Source: a virus. Taken from it: a stretch of DNA of 64,000 nucleotides. The notes under the pieces are model-generated. The model had not been told where the DNA came from, did not search any database, and saw only the letters and a list, made by a program, of their open reading frames with translations. Shown here in pieces: positions 4,297-28,951 of the stretch. The translations under genes were made by a program, and so were the position numbers. The stretch's first letter is position 1, and every line of letters begins with the position of its first letter. The DNA is taken from the IMG/VR virus record IMGVR_UViG_3300017963_000230, positions 1 through 64,000 of that record; one strand, given 5' to 3'.

Positions 4297-4309
4297 AAGG
4301 AGGTGCAAA

Positions 4310-5066: not shown

Positions 5067-5144
5067 ATGAAATTGGACATTTACATTGGATTGATGGTAG
5101 CAATTATAGCTATCATCTCGGTTCTTCACTTTAGCCTTTGCTAA
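5067..5144 (+). CDS. Micro-ORF, 25 aa, hydrophobic
   Basis: AGGAAGAGGG upstream. Product is MKLDIYIGLMVAIIAIISVLHFSLC. Confidence 0.25.
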   Translation: MKLDIYIGLMVAIIAIISVLHFSLC

Positions 5145-5161
5145 GGAAAGGAGCGACTGAA

Positions 5162-5341: not shown

Positions 5342-5354
5342 GGAGATTAGAGTC

Positions 5355-5567
5355 ATGGGAGAAAACTTACTGGTATTAGCAAAAGAAGCGTCTGGTTATG
5401 ACACAGTGATGGGTATGCTGGAAGACTCAGTAGACGGTATCGCTGTGGGAATCTGCGACAAATGCCACGCAATCCGTGACGTGGAGCCTGACGCCAGCAA
5501 CTACGATTGCTGGGAATGTGAAGGTGGCAAGGTAAACAGTGTACTGGTACTTGGAGGACTCATTTAG
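5355..5567 (+). CDS. Hypothetical protein with a Cys/His cluster
   Basis: AAGGAG SD. Contains CDKCH...CWEC. Confidence 0.65.
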   Translation: MGENLLVLAKEASGYDTVMGMLEDSVDGIAVGICDKCHAIRDVEPDASNYDCWECEGGKVNSVLVLGGLI

Positions 5568-5581
5568 GATTCTTCAACCTC

Positions 5582-5639
5582 TTTTCTCACTGCTGTTGTA
5601 GGTAGTAGTGAGAAAAGATGCTGAGAAATCCTGAGAAAA
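5582..5639 (+). promoter_or_regulatory. Second (G/C)TGAGAAA array, including a 10-bp hairpin
   Basis: cttttctcac (5581-5590) pairs with gtgagaaaag (5608-5617). Followed by ctgagaaat 5621 and ctgagaaaa 5631. Confidence 0.55.
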
Positions 5640-5649
5640 GGAAAGCAAA

Positions 5650-5874
5650 ATGCCAAAAAAGATTAGAGTCTATACAGTTAAATGCAGAAGAGGTTGCGGT
5701 AAGGTATTAGCAACCACAAATAGGTCAATCTGGGGTGTACCACAACATATACGAGAAAAGTACCAAGGTATATGCGGTGACTGTTTGACCCCAGAAGAAC
5801 ACAGGGAGATATTTGAAGCCACCCAGAAAGCGGTAGAAAGGAAATGCCATGAGACTCACACTCTCCGACAATGA
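5650..5874 (+). CDS. Small Cys-rich (zinc-ribbon-like) protein
   Basis: CRRGCG...CGDC in a 74-aa ORF. Confidence 0.65.
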   Translation: MPKKIRVYTVKCRRGCGKVLATTNRSIWGVPQHIREKYQGICGDCLTPEEHREIFEATQKAVERKCHETHTLRQ

Positions 5875-6067
5875 AGGCGAAGTCCTAAACACTTGGGAAA
5901 TTGTAGAAGATTACCCAGTAGACTTTGATTTTGAAGACCTAGATGATGACTGGGCTGAAGATAAAATTATCATCAGTGAGGTAAACAGGGCTCCACTCTC
6001 TGCCTCCTCTTATGGTCGCCAAATACTGAGAGAAATACAGAGGATGTGGGAAGTAGGAAGGAGATAG
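5849..6067 (+). CDS. Hypothetical acidic protein
   Basis: 72-aa ORF with a 26-nt overlap on the upstream gene. Confidence 0.55.
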   Translation: MRLTLSDNEGEVLNTWEIVEDYPVDFDFEDLDDDWAEDKIIISEVNRAPLSASSYGRQILREIQRMWEVGRR

Positions 6068-8583: not shown

Positions 8584-9042
8584 ATGACTAATCAAGAGTA
8601 CCTCAACCACTTGACTGGAAAGAACCTAAGTCACCTTAAACCACTGTACGAGAAAATCTTCACGCAATCTCCCCCCGCTAAGTTTAAAAAGAAGGACATC
8701 ATCCAAAAGCTCTACGACAGGTTCAAAGAGCTCAACAAAGAGAACCCCAGCGCAGAAGAGTACAATCCTGACATCGACCCCCAGTTTGGCATCACTGAAA
8801 ACAACTACCACAAAGTTACTTCCCGTGCAGGTAGCCGACGCAGTATAATCATCGAAGCGATAAAAGAAGGAATATGGGACACGGTTACGTTGGCAGAAAT
8901 GTTGCACATGAAGAACGAGACATGGCCCTTAAAGAAGAACAAAGTAGCGGTCAGTGGAACAATAGCTGACTTGAGAAAGAACAAAGGATGGGACATCAAA
9001 GTCGATGACAAAGGAAGGATATGTGTAGCAAATGGTACTTAA
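8584..9042 (+). CDS. Putative DNA-binding protein (winged-helix-like C-terminus; paralogue of 689-1159)
   Basis: Shares the RRSIIIEAIKEG...VAVSGTIADLRK segment with the first ORF. N-terminal LSHLKPLYEKIF...KKKDIIQKL looks like a helix-extension-helix. Confidence 0.55.
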   Translation: MTNQEYLNHLTGKNLSHLKPLYEKIFTQSPPAKFKKKDIIQKLYDRFKELNKENPSAEEYNPDIDPQFGITENNYHKVTSRAGSRRSIIIEAIKEGIWDTVTLAEMLHMKNETWPLKKNKVAVSGTIADLRKNKGWDIKVDDKGRICVANGT

Positions 9043-9148
9043 AATCATAATAGTCCTAGCCTTGTGGGTACTCGTCAGCATACCATTAGGTATAATAATA
9101 GGACGCATACTAAGAGAGAAACACAATGAAACTAAAACCAGGTTATAA
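9032..9148 (+). CDS. Micro-ORF, 38 aa, one transmembrane helix
   Basis: MVLKIIIVLALWVLVSIPLGIIIG.... Overlaps both neighbours. Confidence 0.25.
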   Translation: MVLKIIIVLALWVLVSIPLGIIIGRILREKHNETKTRL

Positions 9149-9380
9149 ATACCACTACGAAAGACCTATGGTTTCTAATAAAGTGATACATGTAATTGCA
9201 ATCATAGAAGACCACGCGGTATTCTGTTGGTACAGTTATAAAAGAAGGTATTGGCAGTTCCAAATAGAATGGACTGAAATCTTAAAGGATAGTATAAAAG
9301 AAATAGGTAAAAGTCCATATAAATTTGACATATCAATCCCAAAACAGGAGGTTTATCATGGAACAACAAGTTACACCTGA
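9126..9380 (+). CDS. Hypothetical protein
   Basis: 84-aa ORF. Confidence 0.6.
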   Translation: MKLKPGYKYHYERPMVSNKVIHVIAIIEDHAVFCWYSYKRRYWQFQIEWTEILKDSIKEIGKSPYKFDISIPKQEVYHGTTSYT

Positions 9381-10191
9381 GTTCCCTGAAGTAGAACTCA
9401 CAACGGTAGAGGTGGCTGGCATTACTGCTGAGAACTACAAGGCGGTGAGGAATGTCGAAACAGACCAGATTTATGATATCGTCAGCCCTAAATACAAACT
9501 GGTAAGGCATGAAAAGGTGCTGGAGAATGTAGAGGAAGTACTGGAAAGAAATACAGTAGATTTTGGTTCCTACTCCAAGCATGTGTTCCTTTACAAAGAC
9601 GGCGCCCGCATGAGGACCAAATACAGGTTTGACGATGCTCAGGTAGTAGTTAAATTCCGTGGGAAAGATGACGTTATGAATCCCACACTGGAGGTTTTCA
9701 ACAGCTATGACCGTAGTTGTAAACACACAGTGATGCTGGGAGCATTTAGAATGGTATGCACGAACGGTCTTGTTATAGGAGAAACCTTCGCTAAGTACAA
9801 GAAACGCCACATGCCTGACCTGTACTTGGAAGATGTACAGTATGCACTCAAAGATGGTTTTACAGCTATCGACGACCAAAGGAAGCAGTGGCAGGATTGG
9901 ACCTCTACCCCTTTACTGCCTGAGAAGTTTGAAAAGGTGGAAAAGAAATTGGATCTTAATAACAAAGAGACCACGTTGCTGTTGGAAGAACCTGAAACAA
10001 GCACCAACGCTAACTTAGCCCGCTGGTTAGCTTTACATGAAATGGGCGGTAAATGGGAGAAGGAAGCAGAAGAGTATATGAATATGTGGATCTTCTACAA
10101 TATACTCACACAGTTTACCACACACCATATAGCCAGTGAAGTACGCCGTCAGCAGTTAGAAGATAGAATCAGAAAGGTTATGTTTAACTGA
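9358..10191 (+). CDS. DUF932-like phage/plasmid protein
   Basis: ACAGGAGGT SD. IVSPKYKLVRHE...NPTLEVFNSYDRSCKHTVMLGAFRMVCTNGLVIG matches the remembered DUF932 core pattern. Confidence 0.6.
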   Translation: MEQQVTPEFPEVELTTVEVAGITAENYKAVRNVETDQIYDIVSPKYKLVRHEKVLENVEEVLERNTVDFGSYSKHVFLYKDGARMRTKYRFDDAQVVVKFRGKDDVMNPTLEVFNSYDRSCKHTVMLGAFRMVCTNGLVIGETFAKYKKRHMPDLYLEDVQYALKDGFTAIDDQRKQWQDWTSTPLLPEKFEKVEKKLDLNNKETTLLLEEPETSTNANLARWLALHEMGGKWEKEAEEYMNMWIFYNILTQFTTHHIASEVRRQQLEDRIRKVMFN

Positions 10192-10200
10192 AGACCTTAT

Positions 10201-10322
10201 GGCTGACCTAACCGAGAGCTCCCTAATCACGCTGACGGGTAAGCAAAGTAGGTGAACCTCTTGGTAATTGTCCTACTGACCAGAGCCCCAATGCTCGGAC
10301 AGGTTGCAAGAGGAGGTCAGCC
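10201..10322 (+). other. Candidate structured RNA or complex terminator (nested helices)
   Basis: ggctgacct 10201-10209 pairs with aggtcagcc 10314-10322, and cctcttg 10257-10263 with caagagg 10307-10313. Inner tgtcc/ggaca and gagc/gctc pairs. G+C-richer than the flanks. Confidence 0.35.
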
Positions 10323-10327
10323 TTCAA

Positions 10328-10363
10328 ACTTATCTTGCAATATCATATTGAAATTGCTACAAT
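10328..10363 (+). promoter_or_regulatory. Early promoter (family member)
   Basis: acttatcTTGCAA (10335-10340), 17 nt, TACAAT (10358-10363). Confidence 0.6.
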
Positions 10364-10396
10364 TAATTAGAAAACAAAAAGAAGGAGGTGAAACAA

Positions 10397-10786
10397 ATGG
10401 CACTAAGATCTATGTCGGGATTTAGCAGAAAAGAGAGAACAAGCCACACCACAGAAAAGCTACTCATTTCTAATCAGAAAAACAGAGACAACGCTATGGT
10501 AGTATTCTATATTGGTTCCAAACTATGTGAGAAAGCCAACATACGTCCCAGTGACAAGCTGGACGTGCTTTGGGACGACACTACAGGTGCTGGTGCTATT
10601 GTTCAAACTGAAGAAGGTAAAACTGTAACGATCCTAAAAAATGGTAGAGGTGTTTTAAACTTCACCTGGAAAGAAGGGATGCCTATCCCTCCAGAAAGTA
10701 ATGGACCTGTTGAAGCCATAAACGTGCAGGTAGAAGAACAAAATGAAGAAATTCATTTCACATTCCCTGAAAACTGCCTGCAATAG
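10397..10786 (+). CDS. Hypothetical protein
   Basis: GAAGGAGGTG SD before ATG 10397. Confidence 0.7.
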   Translation: MALRSMSGFSRKERTSHTTEKLLISNQKNRDNAMVVFYIGSKLCEKANIRPSDKLDVLWDDTTGAGAIVQTEEGKTVTILKNGRGVLNFTWKEGMPIPPESNGPVEAINVQVEEQNEEIHFTFPENCLQ

Positions 10787-10809
10787 GAAAAATTTACTGC
10801 ATACTTTGA

Positions 10810-10847
10810 CATTAAGCAAGTAAAGTTCGTGCAGAATTCAGCAAATA
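10810..10847 (+). promoter_or_regulatory. Conserved ~38-nt intergenic motif, copy B
   Basis: cattaagcaagtaaagttcgtgcagaattcagcaaata, followed by TGCTACAAT (10862-10870). Confidence 0.6.
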
Positions 10848-10915
10848 AAAGCGTAGGAATTTGCTACAATCACAATACTTTACAGCTAATTGAAGCAGAA
10901 AGGCCCAATCCTATT

Positions 10916-11182
10916 ATGTCGCTACAACACATTGAAGATTACCACATTGACTTGGAAGCGAAAAGGCACATAATGAGGGAAGTCTGTGATGAGGCTAAAG
11001 CATTGATGATAATACTGCTGGAAGCCCCAGAAGAGTTCCTCAGCCAATTCAAATTTAATAACTCCTTTTCCCGCCGACGCCTCGAAAACTACCTCATGTT
11101 TGAAGAAAGATGGAGTGCAACTAAGGTCAAGAAAGTAATGAGTGACCTCAGGCGGGCTCATGAGAGGTTTTTAGCATTATGA
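10916..11182 (+). CDS. Hypothetical protein
   Basis: First ATG of track ORF 10829-11182. The upstream GTG would place motif B and a -10 element inside the CDS. No SD. Confidence 0.5.
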   Translation: MSLQHIEDYHIDLEAKRHIMREVCDEAKALMIILLEAPEEFLSQFKFNNSFSRRRLENYLMFEERWSATKVKKVMSDLRRAHERFLAL

Positions 11183-11349
11183 GTACACCATGGAAGAAAC
11201 TATACTTTAAATTCGAAAAAACACTACTCAAACAATTAAGCACAAACCTTCCAGGAGTAGCATGGGACAGAGCTGTACTTATTCCTATCCTGAAATGTAT
11301 AAGAAGGAAACTAAAAGATGAGATTCCTAATCGAAAGTCCAGTCTTTAG
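11179..11349 (+). CDS. Small hypothetical protein (56 aa)
   Basis: ATGA overlap with the upstream stop. Below the track cutoff. Overlaps the helicase start by 32 nt. Confidence 0.35.
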   Translation: MSTPWKKLYFKFEKTLLKQLSTNLPGVAWDRAVLIPILKCIRRKLKDEIPNRKSSL

Positions 11350-12829
11350 CAAAGGACTGGACAACGAAGCAAAACAATTCTTACGGTCAGCTCTCCGCTA
11401 CCAAGAGCCCTTCTATGTGAAAAAGAAATATGGAGGCACCACTAAGATGCACAATAAGTATATGTCCACAAAAGGTGGTGTCTTCCTAACAGGGCTCGTG
11501 CCACGGGTGAAAGACACACTGATGCAAAGAGGAATGAAGTCCATATGGACCTTCGGTGATATCATGAAGGAGATTCCACTGCCCACTACAGATCCCTACC
11601 TTGAGGGAATCACGCTAAGGGAATTCCAGGACAAACTCATACTCAAAGCCATCATGACTCAGAGAGGTGTCATAAAAGCACCTGCACGAAGTGGCAAGAC
11701 GGTGATCATGGGAGGCATAGCGAGCTGTTTCCAGAGCAAATTTCAAACTATCTTAATCCTAATGCACACAAAAGACCTACTATGGCAAACCTATGAAGAG
11801 TTCCAACGCTTTGGCTTTGAAGATATAGGTATAGTAGGAGATGGTAAGAAAGAGTATGGACATAGGATCACTATTGCTCTACATCAAAGCTATGTCAAAG
11901 CGTTAGGAACTAACGGACATACTCATCATGACCTCATAATGGTTGACGAAGCTCATCACATAGCAAGCGATGACAGCAATTATGGGAAGATACTTAAGAA
12001 TGACCTTGCTCCCTTTCGCTTTGGTGTAACAGCAACTCCTTCTCCTGAATTAGGAAAGCGACTTGCAATGGAAGGCTTGATAGGTCCTGTTATAGGTGAA
12101 ATCACTCAGGAAGAAGCTCGTGTAGCGGAAGTTGTTACGCAGGCCAAAGTAAAGATAGTTAAAGTACCCCTAAATGTGTCGGTAAAAAATATCAAAACTT
12201 ACTACGAAGCCTACAAAAAAGGAATAGTACTCAGCAGAACCAGAAACAGACTGATAATGAAAACTGCTACAGGATTATTGGATGAGAACAAAACAGTACT
12301 CATACTGGTGAGACGAGTGCGACATGGATTTGAATTAGCAAATATGTTTGAGAAATTTTCAGAGTATGAGGCTCCTTTTCTTTGTGGCGGAATAGATGCT
12401 GACACAAAAAGAGAGATGAAGCGGTTACAGAAGGACATTGAGAAAAGATTGACTTCAGATAAGGGAAAAGCCAAGTTGCAAGAAATGTATGATGAATTTC
12501 AAGACTACAAGAACTTGGAAGCAAAAATAAAAGTAAACAATCAGAAACGTCCTCACTACCGAAAAGCCCTCAATGACCGCAGCATAAGATGTATTATTGT
12601 AACCAATATATGGAATGAAGGCATTAACATACCAACGCTGGATGCTATCATTAATGCCGCAGGAGGTAAGTCAGAGATACAAACAATACAGGCTGCGAGC
12701 AGGTCGCTGACAGCGAGTGCAGAAAAGGAATATGGATTGATAGTTGACTTTTTCGATCCAAACGCAAGGTGGTTTGTTGACCACTTTGGAGAACGCATTT
12801 CACTTTATTGTGAGGAGGGATGGCTATGA
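11318..12829 (+). CDS. Superfamily 2 DEAH-box DNA helicase (UvsW/ResIII-like)
   Basis: Motif I APARSGKT, motif II MVDEAHH, motif III GVTATP, motif VI QAASRS. Confidence 0.8.
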   Translation: MRFLIESPVFSKGLDNEAKQFLRSALRYQEPFYVKKKYGGTTKMHNKYMSTKGGVFLTGLVPRVKDTLMQRGMKSIWTFGDIMKEIPLPTTDPYLEGITLREFQDKLILKAIMTQRGVIKAPARSGKTVIMGGIASCFQSKFQTILILMHTKDLLWQTYEEFQRFGFEDIGIVGDGKKEYGHRITIALHQSYVKALGTNGHTHHDLIMVDEAHHIASDDSNYGKILKNDLAPFRFGVTATPSPELGKRLAMEGLIGPVIGEITQEEARVAEVVTQAKVKIVKVPLNVSVKNIKTYYEAYKKGIVLSRTRNRLIMKTATGLLDENKTVLILVRRVRHGFELANMFEKFSEYEAPFLCGGIDADTKREMKRLQKDIEKRLTSDKGKAKLQEMYDEFQDYKNLEAKIKVNNQKRPHYRKALNDRSIRCIIVTNIWNEGINIPTLDAIINAAGGKSEIQTIQAASRSLTASAEKEYGLIVDFFDPNARWFVDHFGERISLYCEEGWL

Positions 12830-16945: not shown

Positions 16946-17203
16946 ATGGATGACCGTTCAAAGATTTATCTAACAATAACTACAATCTTATTAGTACTCC
17001 TGTTCTTTTTATATGTTTATAGCTACAAAATAAATCAATGGAAATGGGAATATGTTAGAAAACACATGCACGGTAAGGTGGAAGACTACAAAGTAACAGA
17101 TGATTTAACTATACGTTGGGTTCCTGTAGATCCGAGCATTTACGTTTATACTAGAGAAGGAATTATTCATATAGACCTAAGTAAAAGGGAGGTAACTAAA
17201 TGA
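16946..17203 (+). CDS. Small membrane protein
   Basis: LTITTILLVLLFFLYVY transmembrane helix. Confidence 0.6.
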   Translation: MDDRSKIYLTITTILLVLLFFLYVYSYKINQWKWEYVRKHMHGKVEDYKVTDDLTIRWVPVDPSIYVYTREGIIHIDLSKREVTK

Positions 17204-17631
17204 TAGTAGGAAAGACATTTACATTTGATGCAGCTCATCAACTACCTAAGTATCGTGGGGACTGTAATAAGCTACATGGTCATACCTATAAGTTGGAGGT
17301 AGAAGCATATGGACCTGTAGTTACGAATGAAAGAAGCACAATAGAAGGAATGGTTATTGACTTTAAAGATCTAAAAGATTTAGTAGAAGAGGTTGTTCTT
17401 AACAACCTTGATCATTCTTACCTAAATGATATATTTGAGAATCCCACAGCAGAAATCATAGCCTTTAAGATATTTTATGAGCTAGATAAATACTTTGAAG
17501 AGGAAGAGGATAGAGGTATTTCAAAAGTAAGGCTGTGGGAAACACCAACCAGTTACGTGGAGGTACGTCATGAAGATTTACAGCATTTTCTCCAGCATAC
17601 ACGGGGAGGCAAATTGCCGTGGACAGGGTAG
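17200..17631 (+). CDS. queD: 6-carboxy-5,6,7,8-tetrahydropterin synthase
   Basis: FTFDAAHQLP...CNKLHGHTYKLEV...DHSYLND...LWETPTSY is colinear with the remembered E. coli QueD. Confidence 0.85.
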   Translation: MIVGKTFTFDAAHQLPKYRGDCNKLHGHTYKLEVEAYGPVVTNERSTIEGMVIDFKDLKDLVEEVVLNNLDHSYLNDIFENPTAEIIAFKIFYELDKYFEEEEDRGISKVRLWETPTSYVEVRHEDLQHFLQHTRGGKLPWTG

Positions 17632-18226
17632 TTGGGCAACATTCGTACGAACTGCTGGGTGTAGCTTAGGTTGTAACTACTGTGATACAAAGTATGCCCA
17701 AGATCCTAGAGTAGGCAAGGAAATGGACATTTTTAGGTTAATAGAAAGAGTGGAGAAGTATAAAGGTCCCTATTTGTTGATCACAGGGGGTGAGCCACTA
17801 GAGCAAGGGGAAGAATTGCTTCAGTTTATCTCACTGGTTAGAACTAAAGGATTCCACGTTACGGTAGAAACAAATGGAGCCTACGCTCTACCCCCACGGC
17901 AGCTCTGCACCGTGGATTGCTATGTGGTAGACTATAAGCTGCCTGGTGCAGGAGTAGGTGATGTTTTTCAATGGGCTAATACTAACGTGTTTTCCCAAAA
18001 TGACGTGGTTAAATTTGTGATATCAGACGAGAGTGACTATCAAGAGGCAAAAAGAGCTTATAGGAGACTGAAACAGAGAAATTCCAAGGCAAGGTGCGCT
18101 TTCTCTCCAGTCCTGGATAGGTTAGAACCTGCTGCTCTATACTATTGGATGCTGGAAGACAATATTTGGGACGTACAGCTCAGCCTTCAGTTGCACAAAT
18201 TGGTGAAACTTCCAGAACCTAGGTAA
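17570..18226 (+). CDS. queE: 7-carboxy-7-deazaguanine synthase (radical SAM)
   Basis: SIHGEANCRGQGSWATFVRTAGCSLGCNYCDTKY gives a CX3CX2C cluster in QueE context. 62-nt overlap with queD. Confidence 0.8.
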   Translation: MKIYSIFSSIHGEANCRGQGSWATFVRTAGCSLGCNYCDTKYAQDPRVGKEMDIFRLIERVEKYKGPYLLITGGEPLEQGEELLQFISLVRTKGFHVTVETNGAYALPPRQLCTVDCYVVDYKLPGAGVGDVFQWANTNVFSQNDVVKFVISDESDYQEAKRAYRRLKQRNSKARCAFSPVLDRLEPAALYYWMLEDNIWDVQLSLQLHKLVKLPEPR

Positions 18227-18358
18227 ACTGCCTAAAAAATATCATCAAAAAGTTTATAAACACCAATGGAAACGTTCTATAATGTAGCTATAATTAGCTG
18301 AAAGGCTGAATAACTAACTGGGCGAGAGCTCAAATATCACACAAGGAGGTAACACATT

Positions 18359-18868
18359 ATGGCATTAAGTCCGCAATTTGTAAACGCAAAAGAGCTGAGA
18401 GAGCAGATTGGTGCTCTCAATGCAACCGGTGTTCTGGAAGAGAAGTTGAAGACCGTAGGCATTAAGAAAGAGGTCATGGTCGACAGTTTTCTCAAGGCCG
18501 TAGATAGCATTCCAGAAGGCAGTGAGGAAGAAAAGAAGCTGCCGGATTCCGTCGTGGAATTCTATAACAGCATTGTCGAAGGGAAAGATCCTAGCCCTGA
18601 AGAGATTGCCGCGATGGAAGCTGCCAAGAAGAAAGGACCTAAACGGGAAGGACCTTCTAATGAGCAGTTAGCCTACGACATGGTCAAAGCTGGCAAATCT
18701 GAAAATGAAATCGCTAAGGCATTCACTGAAAGGTATCACAAGCGGGATCAGAAAGACGCTGATTTCATCAAAAAGCGAATCGACATCTACATTCGCATTG
18801 CCAAAAAGAGGATCGAAAAGGAAGAAGGTGGGGAGGCTACACCTGCCAAAGGAGAAGCGAAGGAATAA
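18359..18868 (+). CDS. Hypothetical Lys/Glu-rich protein
   Basis: AAGGAGGT SD and a TATAAT at 18288-18293 upstream. Visibly higher G+C and different codon choice from its neighbours. Confidence 0.7.
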   Translation: MALSPQFVNAKELREQIGALNATGVLEEKLKTVGIKKEVMVDSFLKAVDSIPEGSEEEKKLPDSVVEFYNSIVEGKDPSPEEIAAMEAAKKKGPKREGPSNEQLAYDMVKAGKSENEIAKAFTERYHKRDQKDADFIKKRIDIYIRIAKKRIEKEEGGEATPAKGEAKE

Positions 18869-18871
18869 TTC

Positions 18872-19459
18872 ATGAATGAAAGACTTATCAAGGATTGTTT
18901 CAAGCTGATCATCGAACAAGGGTTGGGGTTGTCGTTAGATGACCCCAACCTTGTTGGCACCCCTGAACGTATGGCAAAAATGTATCGTCATATTTTCAGG
19001 AATGCTAAAATGGAATGTAAACCAAAACTCACCAAGTTTCCAAACGAAGAAAACATTCAAGAGCTAATAATGTTAGATAGAATACACTTCGTAAGTTGGT
19101 GTAGTCATCATTTCTTACCTTTTGAGGGATACGCTTGGATGGGATATATTCCAGATAAATTTGTTATAGGTGCCTCTAAACCCTCACGCCTTATAGAGCA
19201 TTATAGTGCTTGCCCTAATCTTCAAGAATTCCTATGTATGAACTGCATTAAAGAATTTGACAAACAAATTGAACCTAAAGGAACTATACTCGTAATGCGA
19301 GCTATTCATAGCTGTATGAGATGCAGAGGAGTAAAGCAGAGTGGAGGAGCAGGAATGATAACCTCTTCTTTATCTGGAGTTCTTAAAAAGGATGCAAAAG
19401 CAAGAGCGGAAGCAATGGACTTAATCAAACTTTCAATGATGCAGGGGATGATAGAATGA
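18872..19459 (+). CDS. folE: GTP cyclohydrolase I
   Basis: GTPERMAKMY, WCSHHFLPFEGYAWMGYIP (CEHH-type motif with Ser), HSCMRCRGV. Confidence 0.8.
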   Translation: MNERLIKDCFKLIIEQGLGLSLDDPNLVGTPERMAKMYRHIFRNAKMECKPKLTKFPNEENIQELIMLDRIHFVSWCSHHFLPFEGYAWMGYIPDKFVIGASKPSRLIEHYSACPNLQEFLCMNCIKEFDKQIEPKGTILVMRAIHSCMRCRGVKQSGGAGMITSSLSGVLKKDAKARAEAMDLIKLSMMQGMIE

Positions 19460-19656
19460 ACGAAAAGAAAAAGAAACCAAAAGTAAAACTCGTTGGAGAA
19501 AATGGTAATGTATTCAACCTTATGGGAATCTGCCAGAAAGCCCTTAGAAAGGAAGGCCTTAATGATGAGGCTAAGGAGATGGTAGATAGAATTTTTCATA
19601 GTGGCAGTTATGATGAAGCATTGTCTATAATGTGTGAATACGTTGATGCTTATTAA
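19456..19656 (+). CDS. Small hypothetical protein
   Basis: 66-aa ORF with ATGA-type coupling to folE. Confidence 0.6.
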   Translation: MNEKKKKPKVKLVGENGNVFNLMGICQKALRKEGLNDEAKEMVDRIFHSGSYDEALSIMCEYVDAY

Positions 19657-19681
19657 TCAGGGGGATTAAGGAGATACTAAA

Positions 19682-20092
19682 ATGAGAAAAATAATTTGGA
19701 TTTTAGCAATCGTCTGTGTATTTGCCCTTGTGGTAAATCCCGCCTTGAGTTGTGGGGGCGGCGACGGTGGAGGTTCAGGTGGAGACGACGGTGGAGGTTC
19801 AGGTGGAGACGACGGTGGAGGTTCAGGTGGAGACGACGGTGGAGGTTCAGGTGGAGACGACGGTGGAGGTTCAGGTGGTTCTGGCGGTTCTGGCGGTTCT
19901 GGAGGTTCTGCATCTGCAGGTGCTTCTCCTGGAGCAGCAGCAGACGGAGATGTCCCAAACGAATACGTGTATCCTGAAAAAGACTACTGTGATGCCTTAA
20001 ACGAACATGAACCTACCTGGGTTATTTGGCACATCTTCCCTTTCTTAGCTGACAAGGATGGATGTGACTGGTCACTTTATTGGAGGAAGTAA
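19682..20092 (+). CDS. Putative lipoprotein or exported protein with a (GGDDGGGS)n linker
   Basis: MRKIIWILAIVCVFALVVNPALSC gives a signal peptide plus a lipobox-like A-L-S-C. Gly/Asp repeat, then a Trp/Cys-containing C-terminal domain. Confidence 0.6.
   Translation: MRKIIWILAIVCVFALVVNPALSCGGGDGGGSGGDDGGGSGGDDGGGSGGDDGGGSGGDDGGGSGGSGGSGGSGGSASAGASPGAAADGDVPNEYVYPEKDYCDALNEHEPTWVIWHIFPFLADKDGCDWSLYWRK
19757..19909. repeat. 24-nt tandem repeat (~5 copies) followed by a 9-nt GGS repeat
   Basis: Unit ggtggagacgacggtggaggttca at 19778, 19802, 19826 and 19850, with a partial copy from 19757. Then ggtggttct/ggcggttct x4. Confidence 0.9.
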
Positions 20093-20430
20093 TGCCTAAA
20101 ACATTCGTTGTAATTAGAACTCAATTTGAAGCCTTGCATTGTTGGCCTAGCGCACCGGATGAAGTAGCTTTCCTAAGAGAGGCCCATCGTCACATGTTCC
20201 ATGTAGAGATGAAGTGGATTGTTCATCATGACGATAGAGATATAGAATTCTTCATGATGAAATGGGAAGTACAGGAATATATCAATGCAAATATGACAAT
20301 GGACCTAGGGCATAGGAGTTGCGAGATGATATGTAAACAGCTCGCAGACCACTTTAAGGCTGACTATGTGAGTGTATTTGAGGATGGTGAAAATGGAGCA
20401 GAATACTACAGAACATTCGAACCAAGGTAA
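20092..20430 (+). CDS. Small conserved-looking protein, possibly a QueD/PTPS-like T-fold paralogue
   Basis: GGAGG SD and TAATG coupling. FEALHCWP...FLREAHRHMFHVEMKW has an H-x-H plus Glu pattern. The fold assignment is a guess. Confidence 0.3.
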   Translation: MPKTFVVIRTQFEALHCWPSAPDEVAFLREAHRHMFHVEMKWIVHHDDRDIEFFMMKWEVQEYINANMTMDLGHRSCEMICKQLADHFKADYVSVFEDGENGAEYYRTFEPR

Positions 20431-20434
20431 ACCT

Positions 20435-21715
20435 ATGAAAGTAGTAGTTATTGATCCCACAAGTCCAGAAGTCAACCGAGGCAGCTTCTGTTATCTTCCC
20501 TATATTGTCTACAACAGCATAGCCTTAAAACAGAACGCATGGCTAATGGAAGACTTCACTATGGCACAAATTAACAGAATACCAAAGGCAGAGGACTATT
20601 TGGTAGCTCTTTGGTCATATCCGCAGATAGATCTCTGCCTCATGCTCAATAAGTTCCTTCCTAAACAGCCTATTTTCTTTGGGTACACACCTTTAATTAA
20701 ACACCTTAAATTAAAGCACTGGTATCCTAAAGAAGAAATGATATTGGCAGGAATGTACAATTATCCTCAATGCTATGCCTCACTAAAACATCTGCTGTTG
20801 AGTGATTGTGATATGCATCTTACAAAGTATGAGGGGCAGGTATATCCACTGTTTACCTCATATGGTTGTCCAAGAGGCTGCGCTTTCTGTCCCTCTACGG
20901 TTAACTGTGGTAGGAAGAGAATAGTAATTCCCATAGAAGATGTCAAAATGATGCTCGATCACTGTATAGAAAGAGATATCAATAACATTCATTTTACAGA
21001 TGAGGACTTCTTTTTCGATCACCAAAGAGCATTTGAAATACTGAATCATGCTGCACGGTTAGGAAGTTTTAATTTTATCGCTCTAGGTGAAGTAACCACT
21101 GTAAACCGTTTTATTGACCTTCATGGTAATGAGGTGCTCACAGACAGTGGTATGAAGTTGATTGAAATAGGCATGGAGACGGCCGACCCTGACTTAGGTA
21201 AGAAGATGGGTAAAGCCCCTGTCAATAAATGCAAGGAACTTTCTGAGAAATGCTCAGTTGATATATTCTGGTTAGCCCTGACGTTCTTCCCAGGTGAAAC
21301 GCTGAAAACTCTAAACGAAACTGGAAAGTTTTTAAGAGAGCATGGTTTTAAACCTGAAGAGCTGTATGGACGGGTCCGTACTAATGGAACTGAAGGGGGA
21401 TTAGGACAATTCTTTCAGCCCTATCATGGAACTAAAGATTACTCACAACTCAAGAAGAGAGGTAAGTTCATTTCAAGTAGACCGATGCGTTTGCTTCCCA
21501 GTTACCTGCCTAACAGTTTCCTATCTCAACTCATAAAACACAGACAAGACCACGAAGATTTAGATTATTACATCAATCTTTACAGACTTCCTGATATAGG
21601 CATACCTAATTCAGGTACAGTATGGGAAAATATTCTACGCAATCTTAAAGAAGGCATCAGTATAGCAGACTCTGCAACCTTTTATGCTATACTTGCCAGA
21701 CTGGGGATAATATGA
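20435..21715 (+). CDS. Radical SAM enzyme with an N-terminal B12-binding-like domain (class-B-like)
   Basis: N-terminal MKVVVIDPTS Rossmann-like start. FTSYGCPRGCAFCPS CX3CX2C cluster. No C-terminal SPASM-type Cys cluster seen. Confidence 0.65.
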   Translation: MKVVVIDPTSPEVNRGSFCYLPYIVYNSIALKQNAWLMEDFTMAQINRIPKAEDYLVALWSYPQIDLCLMLNKFLPKQPIFFGYTPLIKHLKLKHWYPKEEMILAGMYNYPQCYASLKHLLLSDCDMHLTKYEGQVYPLFTSYGCPRGCAFCPSTVNCGRKRIVIPIEDVKMMLDHCIERDINNIHFTDEDFFFDHQRAFEILNHAARLGSFNFIALGEVTTVNRFIDLHGNEVLTDSGMKLIEIGMETADPDLGKKMGKAPVNKCKELSEKCSVDIFWLALTFFPGETLKTLNETGKFLREHGFKPEELYGRVRTNGTEGGLGQFFQPYHGTKDYSQLKKRGKFISSRPMRLLPSYLPNSFLSQLIKHRQDHEDLDYYINLYRLPDIGIPNSGTVWENILRNLKEGISIADSATFYAILARLGII

Positions 21716-22755
21716 TTTACAACATTCCAATCGAAAGTCTTGAGGAGAGGTACAGTAAACAGTGGAACAAATGGTTCCCTGAAGAGCTTAAACGATTGAA
21801 AATCGAGAGCAAAACTGTATATCCCACTCCACTATCTAACAAAATAGAGCAGGGTAGCTTCCTTGATGTCATAACTACCAATCATTTTAAAGCTAACCAA
21901 TTATCCACTATCTGTCAACTATTCTGGATGAATAAAGTAATGCCAGGCGACACATTCCTATTTCACGACCTCTGGTTTCCTGGTATTGAAATGTTAGCCT
22001 ATATGAGAGATGCACTGAAAATTGATTTCAAAATAGCTGGCATACTACATGCTGGTAGCTATGACGAACACGACATGCTCCACAGAGTAGGAATGACGAG
22101 GTGGGCACAGTGGATTGAAAGAGGATGGTTGGAGTTTATCGATCATATATTTGTAGCTACTCAATTTCATAAAAATCTAATATTAGAACAAAGAGGATGG
22201 ACACCCAGTAAACCACATGATATAGATAATAAAATACACATCACAGGTCTGCCTATCTATCCTGAGTTTGCTAATCCTAACCCTCGTCCTAGACAGGACA
22301 TATTATTTCCACACCGACTGGACATAGAAAAGAATCCTCACATGTTTGATGAACTAGAGAAAGCATGTCGTGAGTCTGATGTTGACTTCAGCAAATGGAA
22401 CTTTTTCAAGACTAAGGATATGATAAAGAGTAAACAAGAATACTACAATATGCTGAATAATGGAAGCATAGCAGTGAGCTTTGCAGAGCAGGAAACTTGG
22501 GGTATAGCTATGCAAGAGGCTGTGATGTGTGGGTGTATTCCTCTGGTACCAAACAGACTAAGCTACCAAGAGCTGTACCCTGCAGAGTTTCGCTTTCACA
22601 ATTTTGGTCAATGCGTAGGTATGATTGTAAAGATGGTAACAGATGAACAATACTTTGAAGCCATGCAAGTGATGGCTCAAATACTGGCACAAAAGTTTAT
22701 AATGAAAGGAAAGTTTGCCATAGAGAAAATGCTAACTATATTGGAGGAATTGTGA
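21712..22755 (+). CDS. GT-B fold glycosyltransferase-like protein
   Basis: SFAEQETWGIAMQEAVMCGCIPLVPN (EX7E-like motif). 4-nt overlap with the radical SAM gene. Confidence 0.5.
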   Translation: MIYNIPIESLEERYSKQWNKWFPEELKRLKIESKTVYPTPLSNKIEQGSFLDVITTNHFKANQLSTICQLFWMNKVMPGDTFLFHDLWFPGIEMLAYMRDALKIDFKIAGILHAGSYDEHDMLHRVGMTRWAQWIERGWLEFIDHIFVATQFHKNLILEQRGWTPSKPHDIDNKIHITGLPIYPEFANPNPRPRQDILFPHRLDIEKNPHMFDELEKACRESDVDFSKWNFFKTKDMIKSKQEYYNMLNNGSIAVSFAEQETWGIAMQEAVMCGCIPLVPNRLSYQELYPAEFRFHNFGQCVGMIVKMVTDEQYFEAMQVMAQILAQKFIMKGKFAIEKMLTILEEL

Positions 22756-23018
22756 AGGTACTAAGGATAGCTGTTATACTGTTAGCAACAGTGATGATAA
22801 GTCAGGCAGGTGACTTGCCCAAAAGTACTCGCCAAATATATATTGATAACAAAAGAATTGAGAGCGAAGGAATCCACACAACGAGACCTATTAGGCCTCA
22901 TAATAAGAGGAAGAGAGTGTTTATTTATAAGTGTATTGATTCTGAAACTGGAGAAGAGGTTCCCTGTCCTGAACGTGAAAAAGAGGAAGACACAACGGAA
23001 AGAACATACATGGAATGA
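22752..23018 (+). CDS. Small secreted protein
   Basis: MKVLRIAVILLATVMISQAGD signal peptide. Basic and acidic tail. Confidence 0.55.
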   Translation: MKVLRIAVILLATVMISQAGDLPKSTRQIYIDNKRIESEGIHTTRPIRPHNKRKRVFIYKCIDSETGEEVPCPEREKEEDTTERTYME

Positions 23019-24202
23019 AACTCTATAATAATCATTTCAGCATTGAAGGCACTTACGATATACTCAATCTAAGAGAAGAGCTGGGAAATGCTATAAGCAA
23101 ACCTCCTGCTACTCCTAGAATAGGAATGAGACCTCACACCGCAATTAAGCTACTTCAGGTACGGGATAGAACTGTAAGGGATTTATGGGAAAGGATAAAG
23201 TATATGGTGAAATATGACGATGTAAAGATATTTATGGACTCTGGGGCTCCTAGCCTTTATAACTCCCTTGTGAGAAACAAAGAAGGAGGTGCTCACACTT
23301 ACATGGGAAGTTACCTAAAGGACAGGAAGCATGATGACTTCAGCTTCCTTGAGATGAACGAATACAAAATCTATCGTCGCAAGTATACCATGTTTATTAA
23401 GGAGTACCTTCCTAACCTAGAAGTCTATGCCGTACTTGATGTGATTAATAATGCAGAAGCTACCTGGGAGAATCAGCAGTATATGGAGAGCAAAGGCCTA
23501 AAGCCTATACCTGTTTGGCATTTTGGATGCGAGATCAAATGGCTTGAGATGTATCTAGCTAAAGGCTATGAGTACATAGCAATAGGTGGATTGGTTCCTA
23601 ACCCTACTTCAGTTATTATACCTCCGTTGGATGACATTTGGGATTACCTGTTGACCTACGACAATGGCATCCCGCGGGTTAAAGTACATGGCTTCGCGGT
23701 GACAGCACCTGAACTTGTTAGTCGCTATCCCTGGTACAGTGTGGATAGTGCCAGCTGGGTAAAATATGGTAAGTATGGTATAGTATTGACTCCAAGAACA
23801 AAAGGAGGTAAACGTGTCTACAACGTCTCGCCCCACAGCGTTGCAGTTTCAGATAGAAGTCCGTTTAAAGAGATGCAGGGAAAACATATCTCAAATTACT
23901 CACCTGCTGAACGAAATTTCATCCTTAATTACTACCACGAAAAAGGTTTCCGACTTGGAAGTTGTAAGTATAAACTTGTCGGCAATGGCTACGACCTCCA
24001 GGATAATGAGAGATTCGTTAGTGGAAGAAAAGGAGATAAAGAACGGGAAGTTGAAATCGAAATTGAAAAGGGCCTTGCTACTGACTACAGAGTAAGAGAT
24101 GAATTGAACATACTTTACTATCTAGATTTAGAAAAGAGTCAACCTGACTGGCCTTGGGCTTTCAAGCGCCACAAAATGCCGAAAGGATTCAACTTATTTT
24201 GA
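23015..24202 (+). CDS. dpdA: DpdA-like DNA (guanine) transglycosylase, TGT superfamily
   Basis: IFMDSGAPSLYN, YIAIGGLVP, KVHGFAVTAP and YSVDSASW mirror the TGT-family motif order. Sits in a FolE/QueD/QueE cluster. Confidence 0.65.
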   Translation: MKLYNNHFSIEGTYDILNLREELGNAISKPPATPRIGMRPHTAIKLLQVRDRTVRDLWERIKYMVKYDDVKIFMDSGAPSLYNSLVRNKEGGAHTYMGSYLKDRKHDDFSFLEMNEYKIYRRKYTMFIKEYLPNLEVYAVLDVINNAEATWENQQYMESKGLKPIPVWHFGCEIKWLEMYLAKGYEYIAIGGLVPNPTSVIIPPLDDIWDYLLTYDNGIPRVKVHGFAVTAPELVSRYPWYSVDSASWVKYGKYGIVLTPRTKGGKRVYNVSPHSVAVSDRSPFKEMQGKHISNYSPAERNFILNYYHEKGFRLGSCKYKLVGNGYDLQDNERFVSGRKGDKEREVEIEIEKGLATDYRVRDELNILYYLDLEKSQPDWPWAFKRHKMPKGFNLF

Positions 24203-26128: not shown

Positions 26129-26316
26129 AAATCTACTTTGCAGGAGTACCAGCAGGGCTACAACGCACACGGGAAGAAGGGCTGGAAGCATCTGGAATCA
26201 AAAACAGACTTGTAACCTTCTTCTACCTCAAGAAGTGCCTCATCACGCTGAAACACTACAAACGGATAGAGGAAATTAACTACAAAGGAGTGAACGACTT
26301 CAGCAATGGCAAATAA
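26125..26316 (+). CDS. Small protein, paralogue family member 3
   Basis: MKIYFAGVPAG...NRLVTFFY. Confidence 0.55.
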   Translation: MKIYFAGVPAGLQRTREEGLEASGIKNRLVTFFYLKKCLITLKHYKRIEEINYKGVNDFSNGK

Positions 26317-28951
26317 AGGTTTCTTTACATTCGAAAAGAAGGCACCACGAAAGTCAGCTCTTGATATAAAATATAACACACCAGGAGAGCCTGATTGCAA
26401 GGCATGTGGGCTACATACTTGGCCTAAGACACCTAAAATGCCTGTAGGTGGAAAGGGTGAAAAAGGAATCTTCATACTATGTGAAGAGCCTGGGGAAACG
26501 GAAGACATAAAAGGAACACAGCTGGTGGGGGAGGCTGGCACTTTCTTAGCCAATAAATTATCATCTTTAGGAATCAGTCTACATCGCGATTGCTACATGC
26601 TTAACGCTATCAACTGCCGCAAGCCCAAGAACGCAAAGCCCTCCATGAAAGAGATAAACTGCTGCCGTCCTTATGTTCTCAAAGCACTGGAAGAATATAA
26701 ATTTGACCACCTCTGGACAATGGGAGGCTATGCGATAGACAGCTTATATGGAGATAGGTTTGACAAGCGAGCAATAACAAGGTGGAGAGGGTTGCATGTG
26801 CCTGATATGAAACACATGCTCTGGGTACATCCTATGTTTCACCCCAGTTGGGCTATGAGAGGACAAAAGGATCCCAACATACAAGCTACCTTTGAAAGAG
26901 ATCTAAAGGAAGCCCTTAAATGGAAAACTCCACTACCTCTATATAAAAATTATGAAAAGAATGTTCATTTGCTTTACAAAATAAAAGAGGTTGAGGAATT
27001 AGTCCATAAAATACTGGATATGAATAATGCTATCATGTCCTTCGACTACGAAACTACAGGTCGTAAACCATTTAAACCTGAGCACAGGATTCACTGTGTA
27101 GGTCTCTCTTTTGATGAAGATGCTTATGTGTTTCCCTTAGAGAAGCCTAACTATTGGAAAGAAAATGAGCAAAATAAAGTGCTAAGGTTATGGAGAAGAG
27201 TTCTAACATGGGAACCCGTAAAGAAAATAGCCCACAATGTAGCATATGAGGACCTCTGGAGCACAATAAGAGCTGGAGTTAGACCTCGAAACTTGAGCTG
27301 GTGTACGATGAACACAGCTCACTTAATAGACGATAGGAAATACTTTACTGGGCTCAAATTTCAAACCTTCCTCAATTTTGGTGTTGAGGGGTATGAAGAT
27401 GAGATTAGACCTTACCTAGAAACGGACAACACAGTAGAGTATAATGATATTGATAATGCACCACTTGAAAAGCTGATGCTTTACTGTGGGATGGATTGTA
27501 TCTTCACTCGCAAACTGTATTTCCTACAGAAACAATATTTAGAGCAAAATTTAGAGCTTGAAAGAGCCCGCAGCTTCTACCAACGCTCTATCTACACCTT
27601 CAATAATATGCAACGGCGTGGGGTTCCTGTTGATATAAATTACTACAAAAAGGAGGATGTCAGGCTTGAGAATAAGATGAAGAGGCTGGATAGAATGATA
27701 CTAAATTCTCCTGAAGCAAAAAAGTTCAGATCTAAGACAGGTAAGCCCTTCAACCATAGCTCAGGCTCTGACGTTCGCCACTTACTGTTCAATATCTTAA
27801 AATATCCTCCTGTTAAGAAAACTAAAACAGGTCAGCAGGAGAGTGTAGACGTTGAGGTATTAGACGAGATAAATACTGATTTCACTCAGAGAATATTACA
27901 GCACAGGCGATCTAAAAAGATCAAAGATACCTACTTAGCACAATTTCTAAGGGAGGAATACAATGGACGAGTCCACAGCTTCTTTAATCTTCATATCGCT
28001 CGCACTTACCGTAGTAGCTCAAACAATCCTAATCTGCATAATATTCCGGTCCGTGAAGAGGATGCAAAACGTACTTGTAGAACTGGAATCATCCCTTCAG
28101 ATGACTTTAGATTTATTGAGTCTGACTATGGAAGCCAAGAAGTCAGAATCGCTGGATGCTATACAGAGGACCCTGAATGGATAAACTATATCGTCACCCC
28201 AGGTGCTGACATGCACCGTGATTGTGCGGCAGAGGTATTTAAGTTGGACAGTAAGCAGGTTACGGGTGCAGTAAGATTTTACAGTAAGAATCAATGGGTA
28301 TTTCCACAGTTATATGGCTCCTACTATGGTAATTGTGCAAAGCACCTCTGGAGTTCAGTTGTAGAAGGAGGACTGAAAACAGTTGAAGGTGAGCTAATGA
28401 AAGAGTGGTTAAGATCTAAAGACATAGCCTCTTATGATCGCTTTGAGACTCACTGTAAGAACTACGAACGCCGTTACTGGAACCGTTTTAAGAAAACTAA
28501 ACAATGGCAAGAAAAGGTGATTCGTGATTATGTAAAAAAGGGATATGTAACTACTTATTTTGGACATAGAAGGAGTGGCTACTTATCCATGAATGAAGTT
28601 ATCAACACACCTATACAGGCAACCGCTTTTCACTGCCTACTGTGGTCATGTAACAGGTGTGATGACATAGCAAGGGATGAAAACTGGGACAGCGAGTTGC
28701 TCAGTCAAGTACATGACAGTATGATGTTTGATACTTATCCTCCTGAACAAGAGATGGTGGTTGAAACTATACGCCAAGTAGCAGAGAAAGACATACGAGA
28801 TGAATTTGATTGGATTATTGTACCACTTATAATGGAATTTGAATTTACACCTATCAATGCTAATTGGTACACGAAAGAGGAAGTGACGATGAATAAGAAT
28901 GGTGACTTCGTAGGTGTAGAGTCAGGAAAGATATATGATTTAAATTATTGA
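26306..28951 (+). CDS. Family A DNA polymerase with 3'-5' exonuclease and an N-terminal UDG-fold (family 4-like) domain
   Basis: UDG-like CEEPGETEDIKGTQLVGEAG and HPMFHPSW. Exo motifs FDYETTG, HNVAYED, YCGMDC. Pol motifs DYGSQEVRIAG, RFYSKNQWVFPQLYG, QVHDSMMFD. Confidence 0.85.
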   Translation: MANKGFFTFEKKAPRKSALDIKYNTPGEPDCKACGLHTWPKTPKMPVGGKGEKGIFILCEEPGETEDIKGTQLVGEAGTFLANKLSSLGISLHRDCYMLNAINCRKPKNAKPSMKEINCCRPYVLKALEEYKFDHLWTMGGYAIDSLYGDRFDKRAITRWRGLHVPDMKHMLWVHPMFHPSWAMRGQKDPNIQATFERDLKEALKWKTPLPLYKNYEKNVHLLYKIKEVEELVHKILDMNNAIMSFDYETTGRKPFKPEHRIHCVGLSFDEDAYVFPLEKPNYWKENEQNKVLRLWRRVLTWEPVKKIAHNVAYEDLWSTIRAGVRPRNLSWCTMNTAHLIDDRKYFTGLKFQTFLNFGVEGYEDEIRPYLETDNTVEYNDIDNAPLEKLMLYCGMDCIFTRKLYFLQKQYLEQNLELERARSFYQRSIYTFNNMQRRGVPVDINYYKKEDVRLENKMKRLDRMILNSPEAKKFRSKTGKPFNHSSGSDVRHLLFNILKYPPVKKTKTGQQESVDVEVLDEINTDFTQRILQHRRSKKIKDTYLAQFLREEYNGRVHSFFNLHIARTYRSSSNNPNLHNIPVREEDAKRTCRTGIIPSDDFRFIESDYGSQEVRIAGCYTEDPEWINYIVTPGADMHRDCAAEVFKLDSKQVTGAVRFYSKNQWVFPQLYGSYYGNCAKHLWSSVVEGGLKTVEGELMKEWLRSKDIASYDRFETHCKNYERRYWNRFKKTKQWQEKVIRDYVKKGYVTTYFGHRRSGYLSMNEVINTPIQATAFHCLLWSCNRCDDIARDENWDSELLSQVHDSMMFDTYPPEQEMVVETIRQVAEKDIRDEFDWIIVPLIMEFEFTPINANWYTKEEVTMNKNGDFVGVESGKIYDLNY

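Follow-up and report, generated by a model that had tools for sequence, protein, structure and literature searches.

A glycosyltransferase and a radical SAM enzyme extend a DpdL-type 7-deazaguanine DNA-modification cluster in a phage genome

In Cellulophaga phage phiST, whose DNA contains the deoxynucleoside of 7-deazaguanine (dDG), Cui et al. gave the name DpdL to the protein CGPG_00067 and proposed that it decarboxylates 7-carboxy-7-deazaguanine (CDG) to yield 7-deazaguanine (PMC10516641). DpdL is defined by the signature LxxxHRHxF, which stands in place of the CxxxHGH of QueD (PMC10516641). Here we compare this and other described systems with a cluster of genes for 7-deazaguanine DNA modification located at positions 17200-24202 of a viral sequence of 64,000 nt, taken from IMG/VR record IMGVR_UViG_3300017963_000230; we refer to this whole stretch as the window. 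The cluster has in common with the phiST system a QueC-less logic, a DpdL orthologue and a position adjoining polymerase genes. It differs from it in that phiST uses DpdA3 and has neither a glycosyltransferase (GT) nor a second radical S-adenosylmethionine (SAM) enzyme, while the transglycosylase of the window is DpdA1-like. The dPreQ0 and dG+ systems of Seuratvirus and Nonagvirus (phages CAjan and 9g) contain the DpdA1 enzymes closest to the DpdA of the window and have a similar neighbourhood of clamp and polymerase genes, but they encode QueC or Gat-QueC and make 7-cyano-7-deazaguanine (preQ0) or archaeosine bases, whereas the window encodes DpdL, the GT and the radical SAM enzyme.

Two further systems are relevant for comparison. 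In the biosynthesis of huimycin, HuiG, a GT with a PF13439 domain, puts N-acetylglucosamine on the exocyclic 2-amino group of a 7-deazaguanine-derived base; as in the window, this GT-B/GT4-type enzyme is encoded next to FolE, QueD and QueE homologues (PMC7439116). The huimycin genes, which we compare here by description only, differ from ours in forming an actinomycete secondary-metabolite cluster with QueC, without DpdA and with a free product. The alpha- and beta-glucosyltransferases of phage T4 resemble the arrangement that we propose below in that a phage GT-B enzyme uses a host uridine diphosphate (UDP)-sugar on a modified DNA base, with the same anti-nuclease concept, but their acceptor is the hydroxyl of 5-hydroxymethylcytosine, a pyrimidine. 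To our knowledge, all known glycosylated DNA bases are pyrimidines, with no glycosylated purine among them, and none of the eight known 7-deazaguanine DNA bases bears a sugar. The two main papers on phage deazaguanines mention no GT, and our literature search, which included the DpdA papers since 2024, found no description of a glycosylated deazaguanine DNA base and no link between a GT and phage deazaguanine. The QueC-less DpdL architecture has already been published (PMC10516641), and only its extension by the GT and the radical SAM enzyme is new; this extension is an apparently undescribed, conserved and widespread variant of the known DpdL system.

The cluster comprises 11 genes, all on the + strand and almost without intergenic space, and those named in the initial annotation were all recovered at the same positions. 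The 4-nt overlaps at three junctions (radical SAM/GT, GT/88-aa gene and 88-aa gene/DpdA) indicate an operon organisation, and the whole region reads as one co-directional, tightly packed operon for guanine modification of the phage's own DNA. The genes for CDG synthesis were identified by matches above the cut-offs of their families. QueD (6-carboxy-tetrahydropterin synthase, 143 aa, 17200-17631) matches PF01242 at 112.9 bits (cut-off 22.4, E 1e-32) and phrog_2389, and its translation reads C22-N-K-L-H-G-H, that is, CxxxHGH. QueE (7-carboxy-7-deazaguanine synthase, a radical SAM enzyme of 218 aa, 17570-18226) matches phrog_2076, annotated as 'QueE-like' (E 2e-32), PF04055 (48.2 bits, cut-off 29.5) and PF13353; it carries CSLGCNYC (CxxxCxxC) and is 41% identical to the QueE of CAjan. 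FolE, a guanosine triphosphate (GTP) cyclohydrolase I of 195 aa (18872-19459), matches PF01227 at 144.4 bits (cut-off 27, E 3e-42), as well as phrog_2197.

The small protein of 112 aa encoded at 20092-20430, which had been regarded as a possible T-fold paralogue, could be classified as DpdL, a QueD-like T-fold protein and proposed CDG decarboxylase. It belongs to phrog_17812, and its tblastn match lands on CGPG_00067 of phiST, to which it is 38% identical over 111 aa (E 2e-18). The DpdL signature is present as L28-R-E-A-H32-R33-H34-M-F36. In an alignment of 27 sequences of the DpdL family, L28, H32, H34 and F36 are invariant and R33 nearly so, and the window protein has every invariant residue of this alignment. 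A PDB search with the single DpdL sequence gave no match. As to gene context, the window DpdL occurs with FolE, QueD, QueE and DpdA and without QueC. The family alignment also contains an invariant Ser-Cys-Glu motif (S76-C77-E78 in the window). The published description of DpdL stresses that the catalytic Cys of QueD is replaced by Leu (PMC10516641); the invariant Cys of the Ser-Cys-Glu motif may be catalytically relevant. With the small T-fold protein identified as DpdL, the core of the cluster is, judging by its sequences, the published QueC-less route to 7-deazaguanine. The initial annotation had predicted dCDG or dDG from the QueC-less gene set, and the identity of DpdL makes 7-deazaguanine the expected baseline. 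We hold the assignment of the core to DpdL-type 7-deazaguanine DNA modification with high confidence.

The lack of QueC, QueF and an amidotransferase in the 64 kb, reported in that annotation, was borne out by several searches. Using the QueC of CAjan as a tblastn query against the window, the best match had an E of 5.5, and the sole occurrence of the [ST]GGxD[ST] motif in the six frames of the window runs directly into a stop codon. No Pfam match to QueC, QueF or a glutamine amidotransferase (GATase) was obtained among the scanned open reading frames (ORFs) of the window (at least 100 aa), and the precomputed Pfam labels of the remaining - strand genes include none of the three. The window matches, with 99.98% identity and in circular permutation, an ENA contig of 84,945 bp, which puts the genome at ~85 kb. 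QueC, QueF and an amidotransferase were also absent from 13 kb of further genome sequence (5.5 kb + 7.5 kb), the search leaving aside ~10.6 kb of the mid structural module; these 13 kb hold tail, portal and terminase genes plus small early genes. A related cluster, L142 (IMGVR_UViG_3300032164_000516, ~100-6000), combines QueD, QueE, DpdL, FolE and DpdA with a QueC homologue, has no GT and encodes a divergent radical SAM enzyme (31% identity); DpdL and QueC can therefore coexist.

The last gene of the cluster (23015-24202) encodes a DpdA1-like DNA guanine transglycosylase of 395 aa, which matches phrog_887 (E 8e-37). Its closest described relatives are the DpdA1 proteins of CAjan and 9g, with 35% identity over 64% of the protein by tblastn (E 1e-33) and 35% identity in the reciprocal search against CAjan DpdA1 (E 3e-39); compared with them, it has extensions of ~60 aa at the N-terminus and ~85 aa at the C-terminus. 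In an alignment of 40 sequences that includes CAjan DpdA1, the motifs DSGA (D75), VLD (D142) and SxDSxSW (D244) are invariant. We take DSGA, LD and SxDSxSW to be the catalytic aspartates and base-binding motifs of the tRNA-guanine transglycosylase (TGT) family. The protein gave no Pfam match, falling short of the PF01702 TGT model, and scored 16.7 bits against NCBIfam NF041059 (cut-off 200); its only PDB match, at an E of 1, was the bacterial DpdA structure 7ui4. PF01702 and NF041059 describe tRNA and bacterial enzymes, from which phage DpdA1 is distant. Membership in DpdA3 was ruled out, as the protein shows no similarity to the DpdA3 of phiST.

Regarding the extension of this core, the GT-B enzyme announced in the initial annotation at 21712 (347 aa, 21712-22755) proved to be of GT4 type. 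Its AlphaFold2 (AF2) model, with a predicted local distance difference test score (pLDDT) of 91.5, has a GT-B fold, and in a Foldseek search against the PDB all of the top 50 matches were GT-B enzymes, mostly of GT4 type. The nearest solved structures are MshA, BshA, sucrose-phosphate synthase, TarM, SenB and PglA, with template modeling (TM) scores of 0.6-0.7 at 10-13% identity, while the best viral structural match is gp124 of Acidovorax phage ACP17 (TM 0.88). E261-x7-E269 and the segment F199-P-H-R202-L...E206-K207 (FPHRLxxEK) are invariant in 25 GT sequences, and the R/K phosphate-binding segment aligns with the same motif of WlaC (6eji). Because the E-x7-E and FPHRLxxEK segments are invariant, the modelled protein should be an active nucleoside diphosphate (NDP)-sugar transferase. 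It does not reach the thresholds of Glycos_transf_1 (PF00534, 17.1 bits vs 26.4) or PF13439 (15.3 vs 28.5) in Pfam; many of its homologues carry a precomputed PF00534 match. We ruled out a T4-like DNA glucosyltransferase, since neither the alpha- nor the beta-enzyme of T4 appears among the top 50 PDB or BFVD matches listed. A pterin-glycoside pathway, made of FolE, a 6-pyruvoyl-tetrahydropterin synthase (PTPS) and a tetrahydrobiopterin (BH4) glucosyltransferase, was also rejected: BH4 glucosyltransferases rank no higher than generic GT4 enzymes, and the presence of QueE and DpdA favours deazaguanine.

Directly upstream of the GT gene lies that of a radical SAM enzyme of 426 aa (20435-21715, with an alternative start at 20393). 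It matches PF04055 (E 6e-11) and carries the motif CPRGCAFC, in which C145, C149 and C152 are invariant. In its AF2 model (pLDDT 93.7), a Rossmann-like domain precedes the radical SAM barrel, a fold that agrees with the class-B-like architecture suggested in the initial annotation. Over the full-length fold, Foldseek placed AprD4 first (E 5e-13), followed by MgmA, CysS, TsrM, TokK and OxsB. The best NCBIfam match was also the AprD4 family, NF033070, at 49.9 bits for a cut-off of 500, so that AprD4 is the best match both in structure and in sequence. The SPASM-type radical SAM enzyme that sister clusters contain as an alternative is closest to BtrN (E 4e-11). AprD4 is a radical SAM 1,2-diol dehydratase and BtrN a radical SAM dehydrogenase; both belong to aminoglycoside biosynthesis and act on carbinol carbons of a sugar or cyclitol. 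The window enzyme is a member of neither family and stands outside any named one. The Pfam scan gave no match to the B12-binding domain PF02310; AprD4 likewise has a Rossmann-like domain yet no cobalamin. A tblastn search against 50,697 phage records returned no match. Inteins (PF14890) interrupt one homologue of the enzyme (P0090), and are found as well in the PolB and PolA genes of related phages with the same cluster (L008 and L010).

In order to place both enzymes in context, we annotated their loci across metagenomic viruses with hidden Markov models built for this analysis. Metagenomic relatives number at least 757 for the GT and at least 228 for the radical SAM enzyme. A scan of IMG/VR with the GT profile gave 80 distinct viral contigs, 76 of which contain a DpdA-type gene and 74 DpdL; FolE and QueE are each present in 62 and QueD in 55, while QueC and DpdA3 are found in none. 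A second radical SAM enzyme occurs in 67 of the 80 (39 of class-B type and 30 of SPASM type, with both in 2). Among the 93 GT loci annotated first, 90 carry DpdA, which lies within 500 bp of the GT in 67 of them. This association spans loci with shuffled gene order, phages with different replicases (PolA, PolB or Pol III alpha) and three different TGT/DpdA subfamilies. The radical SAM enzyme is similarly restricted. All of its 47 relatives in IMG/VR are in deazaguanine clusters, and the 45 loci newly fetched include DpdL in 43 and the GT in 40; of the five without GT, two are incomplete sequences and three are the most divergent (at most 34% identity). The DpdL-seeded scan gave at least 561 relatives. 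In the best 80 of these, which were kept, we found the GT in 44 and the phiST-type DpdA3 in 15, never both, and QueC in none. These comparisons strongly back the earlier suggestion of a role for the extra enzymes in the pathway, with the GT found essentially only beside DpdA and DpdL and the radical SAM enzyme only in deazaguanine clusters, and we consider it probable that both are part of it.

The same loci show how the two enzymes relate to each other. In at least five GT clusters that are complete, a second radical SAM enzyme is absent, which makes this enzyme optional and downstream. Besides, three phages carry only the GT and DpdA. In one of them, L072 (IMGVR_UViG_3300032038_000064, 9995-12661), the GT and DpdA are accompanied by a queuosine-precursor transporter of YhhQ/Vut_1 type (E 8e-43) beside PolA, and there is no FolE, QueD, QueE or DpdL within 10 kb of this set. 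Going by its genes, this phage seems to salvage a deazaguanine base from the host and still to use the GT. Sets of GT and DpdA that lack DpdL or the radical SAM enzyme point to the GT as the constant partner of the transglycosylase, independent of both. The possibility that the radical SAM enzyme is required to create the acceptor of the GT was ruled out by the complete clusters that do without it and by the GT-DpdA-transporter set that does without the biosynthesis genes.

The GT is also present in cultured phages. In Acidovorax phage ACP17, the GT (gp124) is a neighbour of DpdL (gp125), and the same holds for PA5oct-like jumbo phages (gp167 and gp166) and for Sinorhizobium phage Phosso; in Xanthomonas phages BUDD and X1 and in Burkholderia phage BCSR5, the two are within a few kb of each other. 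In ACP17 and PA5oct, the GT orthologue is 33-34% identical to that of the window and lies directly beside DpdL, QueE, QueD and FolE, but these phages have no second radical SAM enzyme nearby and their transglycosylases belong to other TGT subfamilies (gp123-like and gp168-like). The GT is preceded in both by these divergent TGT-like proteins, and gp168 of PA5oct has a DSGGFQ motif. The pair of GT and gp168-like protein is found as well in genomes of Methylobacterium, Pelagibacterium, Devosia, Ochrobactrum and Azospirillum. Restriction digests of PA5oct DNA show a pattern of resistance from which the authors infer a modified G (PMC12191111), and the literature that we found on ACP17 and PA5oct does not discuss their GT. 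In PA5oct (L096, NC_071039.1), two small genes lie between DpdL and QueE, at 8785-9749; gp164 has a weak, partial PHROG match to a nucleotide-sugar epimerase (E 2e-8), and gp163 one to a phosphoribosyltransferase (E 1e-6).

The best overall explanation, to which we lean by a little over even, is that the core dDG route is followed by sugar addition by the GT and tailoring by the radical SAM enzyme, giving a modified base in virion DNA. As homology supports, FolE would convert GTP into dihydroneopterin triphosphate (H2NTP), QueD would turn this into 6-carboxy-tetrahydropterin (CPH4) and QueE would produce CDG. By analogy with phiST, DpdL would then take CDG to 7-deazaguanine. The basic DpdA1-like transglycosylase, a member of a family with a median isoelectric point (pI) of 9.0, would swap guanine in DNA for the deazaguanine base, again as homology supports. 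Gene linkage suggests that the GT, a retaining enzyme of GT4 type, uses a host NDP-sugar to glycosylate the deazaguanine, acting either on the free base before insertion, as HuiG does, or on the base already in DNA. The GT and radical SAM families have low median pI values (5.8 and 5.5, respectively, compared with 9.0 for DpdA), a weak hint that they act before insertion, on the free base. Since the GT would also work in the phage that seems to salvage a host base, its acceptor is probably common to different 7-deazaguanines and not a C7 substituent; in huimycin, the 2-amino group is documented to serve as acceptor (PMC7439116). The linkage further suggests that the radical SAM enzyme tailors the product, most plausibly the sugar, because AprD4 and BtrN both attack sugar carbinol carbons and because the enzyme behaves as an optional addition to clusters with the GT. 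In this way, virion DNA would come to carry a 7-deazaguanine with a sugar, which would shield it from host nucleases. We regard the presence of a glycosylated deazaguanine in the DNA of this phage, predicted from its genes, as about an even prospect.

Several points weigh against this explanation. 7-Deazaguanine has no hydroxyl, the usual acceptor of GT4 enzymes, and it would be unusual for a retaining enzyme of this type to form an N- or C-glycoside. The acidity of both the GT and the radical SAM families speaks weakly against direct action on DNA, and if they act before insertion, a bulky base might have to fit the transglycosylase. The radical SAM enzyme is only distantly similar to AprD4 and BtrN (17% identity; 49.9 bits where the family model asks for 500). 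Moreover, three divergent relatives of the enzyme occur without GT (L142, L144 and L145), and for this reason its target may be the deazapurine ring instead of a sugar. The sugar-bearing product is itself a prediction from genes. Even the decarboxylase activity of DpdL is only predicted: its heterologous test failed, as the expression of ACP17 DpdL and DpdA in E. coli gave no dDG, and the authors suggest that further enzymes are perhaps needed (PMC10516641).

One could argue that the base is simply dDG, as in phiST, or dCDG, and that the GT and the radical SAM enzyme serve another purpose, such as the glycosylation of a protein or host molecule, or help DpdA in a way that leaves the base as it is. 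The set of FolE, QueD, QueE, DpdL and DpdA is indeed complete without them, and phiST makes dDG without a GT (PMC10516641). The acidity of both families and the want of a hydroxyl in 7-deazaguanine suit this view as well, and a separate glycosylation cluster at 50-59 kb implies that protein glycosylation occurs in this phage. However, an unrelated function would not be expected to show so exclusive a linkage: the GT occurs almost only beside DpdA-type genes (the 76 of 80 contigs above), in phages whose replication modules are unrelated and whose gene orders differ, with three TGT subfamilies and never with DpdA3, and the radical SAM family is restricted to deazaguanine clusters. We consider this alternative unlikely, although it is the one that survives best.

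Only slightly less credible, in our judgement, is that the two enzymes decorate the base independently, with the radical SAM enzyme acting on the deazapurine ring, for instance by C-methylation of a pyrrole carbon (C7 or C8) in the manner of TsrM, which acts on the tryptophan indole, and the GT acting elsewhere. The cobalamin-dependent C-methyltransferases MgmA, CysS, TsrM and TokK are among its fold matches, its gene usually comes directly after DpdL, and the relatives L142, L144 and L145 have DpdL and/or DpdA but no GT. On the other hand, the enzyme lacks a B12-binding match in Pfam, its nearest structure, AprD4, is cobalamin-free, its closer relatives are never without GT, and elsewhere the same position is held by a small BtrN-type SPASM/twitch enzyme, which cannot be a class-B methylase. 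Finally, a soluble metabolite made by glycosylation of the free base (huimycin- or dapiramicin-like, e.g. an inhibitor of a host enzyme) and never entering DNA seems very improbable: huimycin biosynthesis does use FolE, QueD, QueE and QueC plus a GT on the free base (PMC7439116), and the acidic pI of the GT would suit a small-molecule enzyme, but the tightest partner of this GT is a DNA transglycosylase, with genes that often overlap, the cluster sits in the replication module between helicase/primase and clamp/polymerase genes, and secondary-metabolite deazapurine clusters are characteristically without DpdA (bioRxiv 10.64898/2026.04.15.718813).

The operon has further genes besides these. 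A Lys/Glu-rich protein of 169 aa (18359-18868) has no family in Pfam, PHROGs or NCBIfam; about half of the related clusters with a GT have a homologue between the QueE and FolE genes, and it may be a non-enzymatic partner or regulator of the pathway. The protein of 66 aa at 19456-19656 matches phrog_1933 (E 2e-19), is present in only 5 related loci and is probably outside the modification chemistry. The ORF at 19682-20092 is an insertion specific to this phage, missing from related clusters; it encodes a lipoprotein-type signal peptide ending in ...ALSC, followed by GGDGGGSGGDD repeats. These Gly/Asp/Ser repeats are encoded by a perfect 24-nt tandem repeat of 4.9 copies at 19762-19878. The alignment with the near-identical ENA assembly splits into two overlapping pieces around this array, which suggests that its copy number differs between both assemblies. 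The protein of 88 aa encoded between the GT and DpdA (22752-23018) has an N-terminal signal or membrane segment; a family search found no match for it, and its gene is present in 4 related loci, all of them close relatives.

The whole cluster is placed inside the replication module, with genes for a helicase, a primase and a DnaB-like protein upstream and for a clamp-like protein, a PolA fused to a uracil-DNA glycosylase (UDG), an exonuclease, a clamp loader, gp32, RecA/UvsX and a flap endonuclease (FEN) downstream. The family-A DNA polymerase (26306-28951) carries the UDG domain at its N-terminus (PF03167, E 5e-18); a phage PolA subfamily with this fusion was described in a 2025 preprint (bioRxiv 10.1101/2025.03.26.645540). 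Promoter and terminator scans gave nothing above shuffled expectation, no tRNA genes were found in the window, and DNA-level similarity to known phages was limited to one chance-like match of 48 bases. The separate glycosylation cluster mentioned above lies on the - strand at 50151-62615. It encodes a GT2 (50151-51167), a methyltransferase (51245-52120), a sulfotransferase-like protein (53767-54396), a GT1-like protein (54979-56118), a GT4-like protein (58121-59383) and, within the same limits, another methyltransferase-like protein. Directly beside these genes, at 59445-62615, a protein of 1056 aa has long Ser/Thr repeats, which suggest a heavily O-glycosylated, mucin-like virion fibre. An ORF of 1651 aa, also on the - strand (41187-46142), lies in a region of very strong GC/AT skew (GC skew up to +0.56 on the + strand) and is probably a repeat-rich structural protein.

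Returning to the sugar-bearing base, it is possible, though a shade short of even, that a large group of phages installs a glycosylated 7-deazaguanine through a GT4 enzyme working with DpdA, with further remodelling by a radical SAM enzyme in many lineages, that of the window among them. The group would comprise about half of the sampled DpdL-encoding viral contigs, with the cultured phages ACP17 and PA5oct among them. Since phages in culture share the gene pair, this idea lends itself to a direct test. If true, the base would be the first of purine type to be glycosylated in DNA and would add a new chemical class of DNA hypermodification, and a protein family with more than 750 metagenomic members could receive a function. 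It could also explain why ACP17 DpdL and DpdA alone gave no dDG in E. coli, could identify the modified G of PA5oct-like therapeutic jumbo phages that is sensed by END nucleases, and would offer new enzymes for guanine-directed DNA labelling. In that case, the DpdL pathway would have other end points besides plain dDG.

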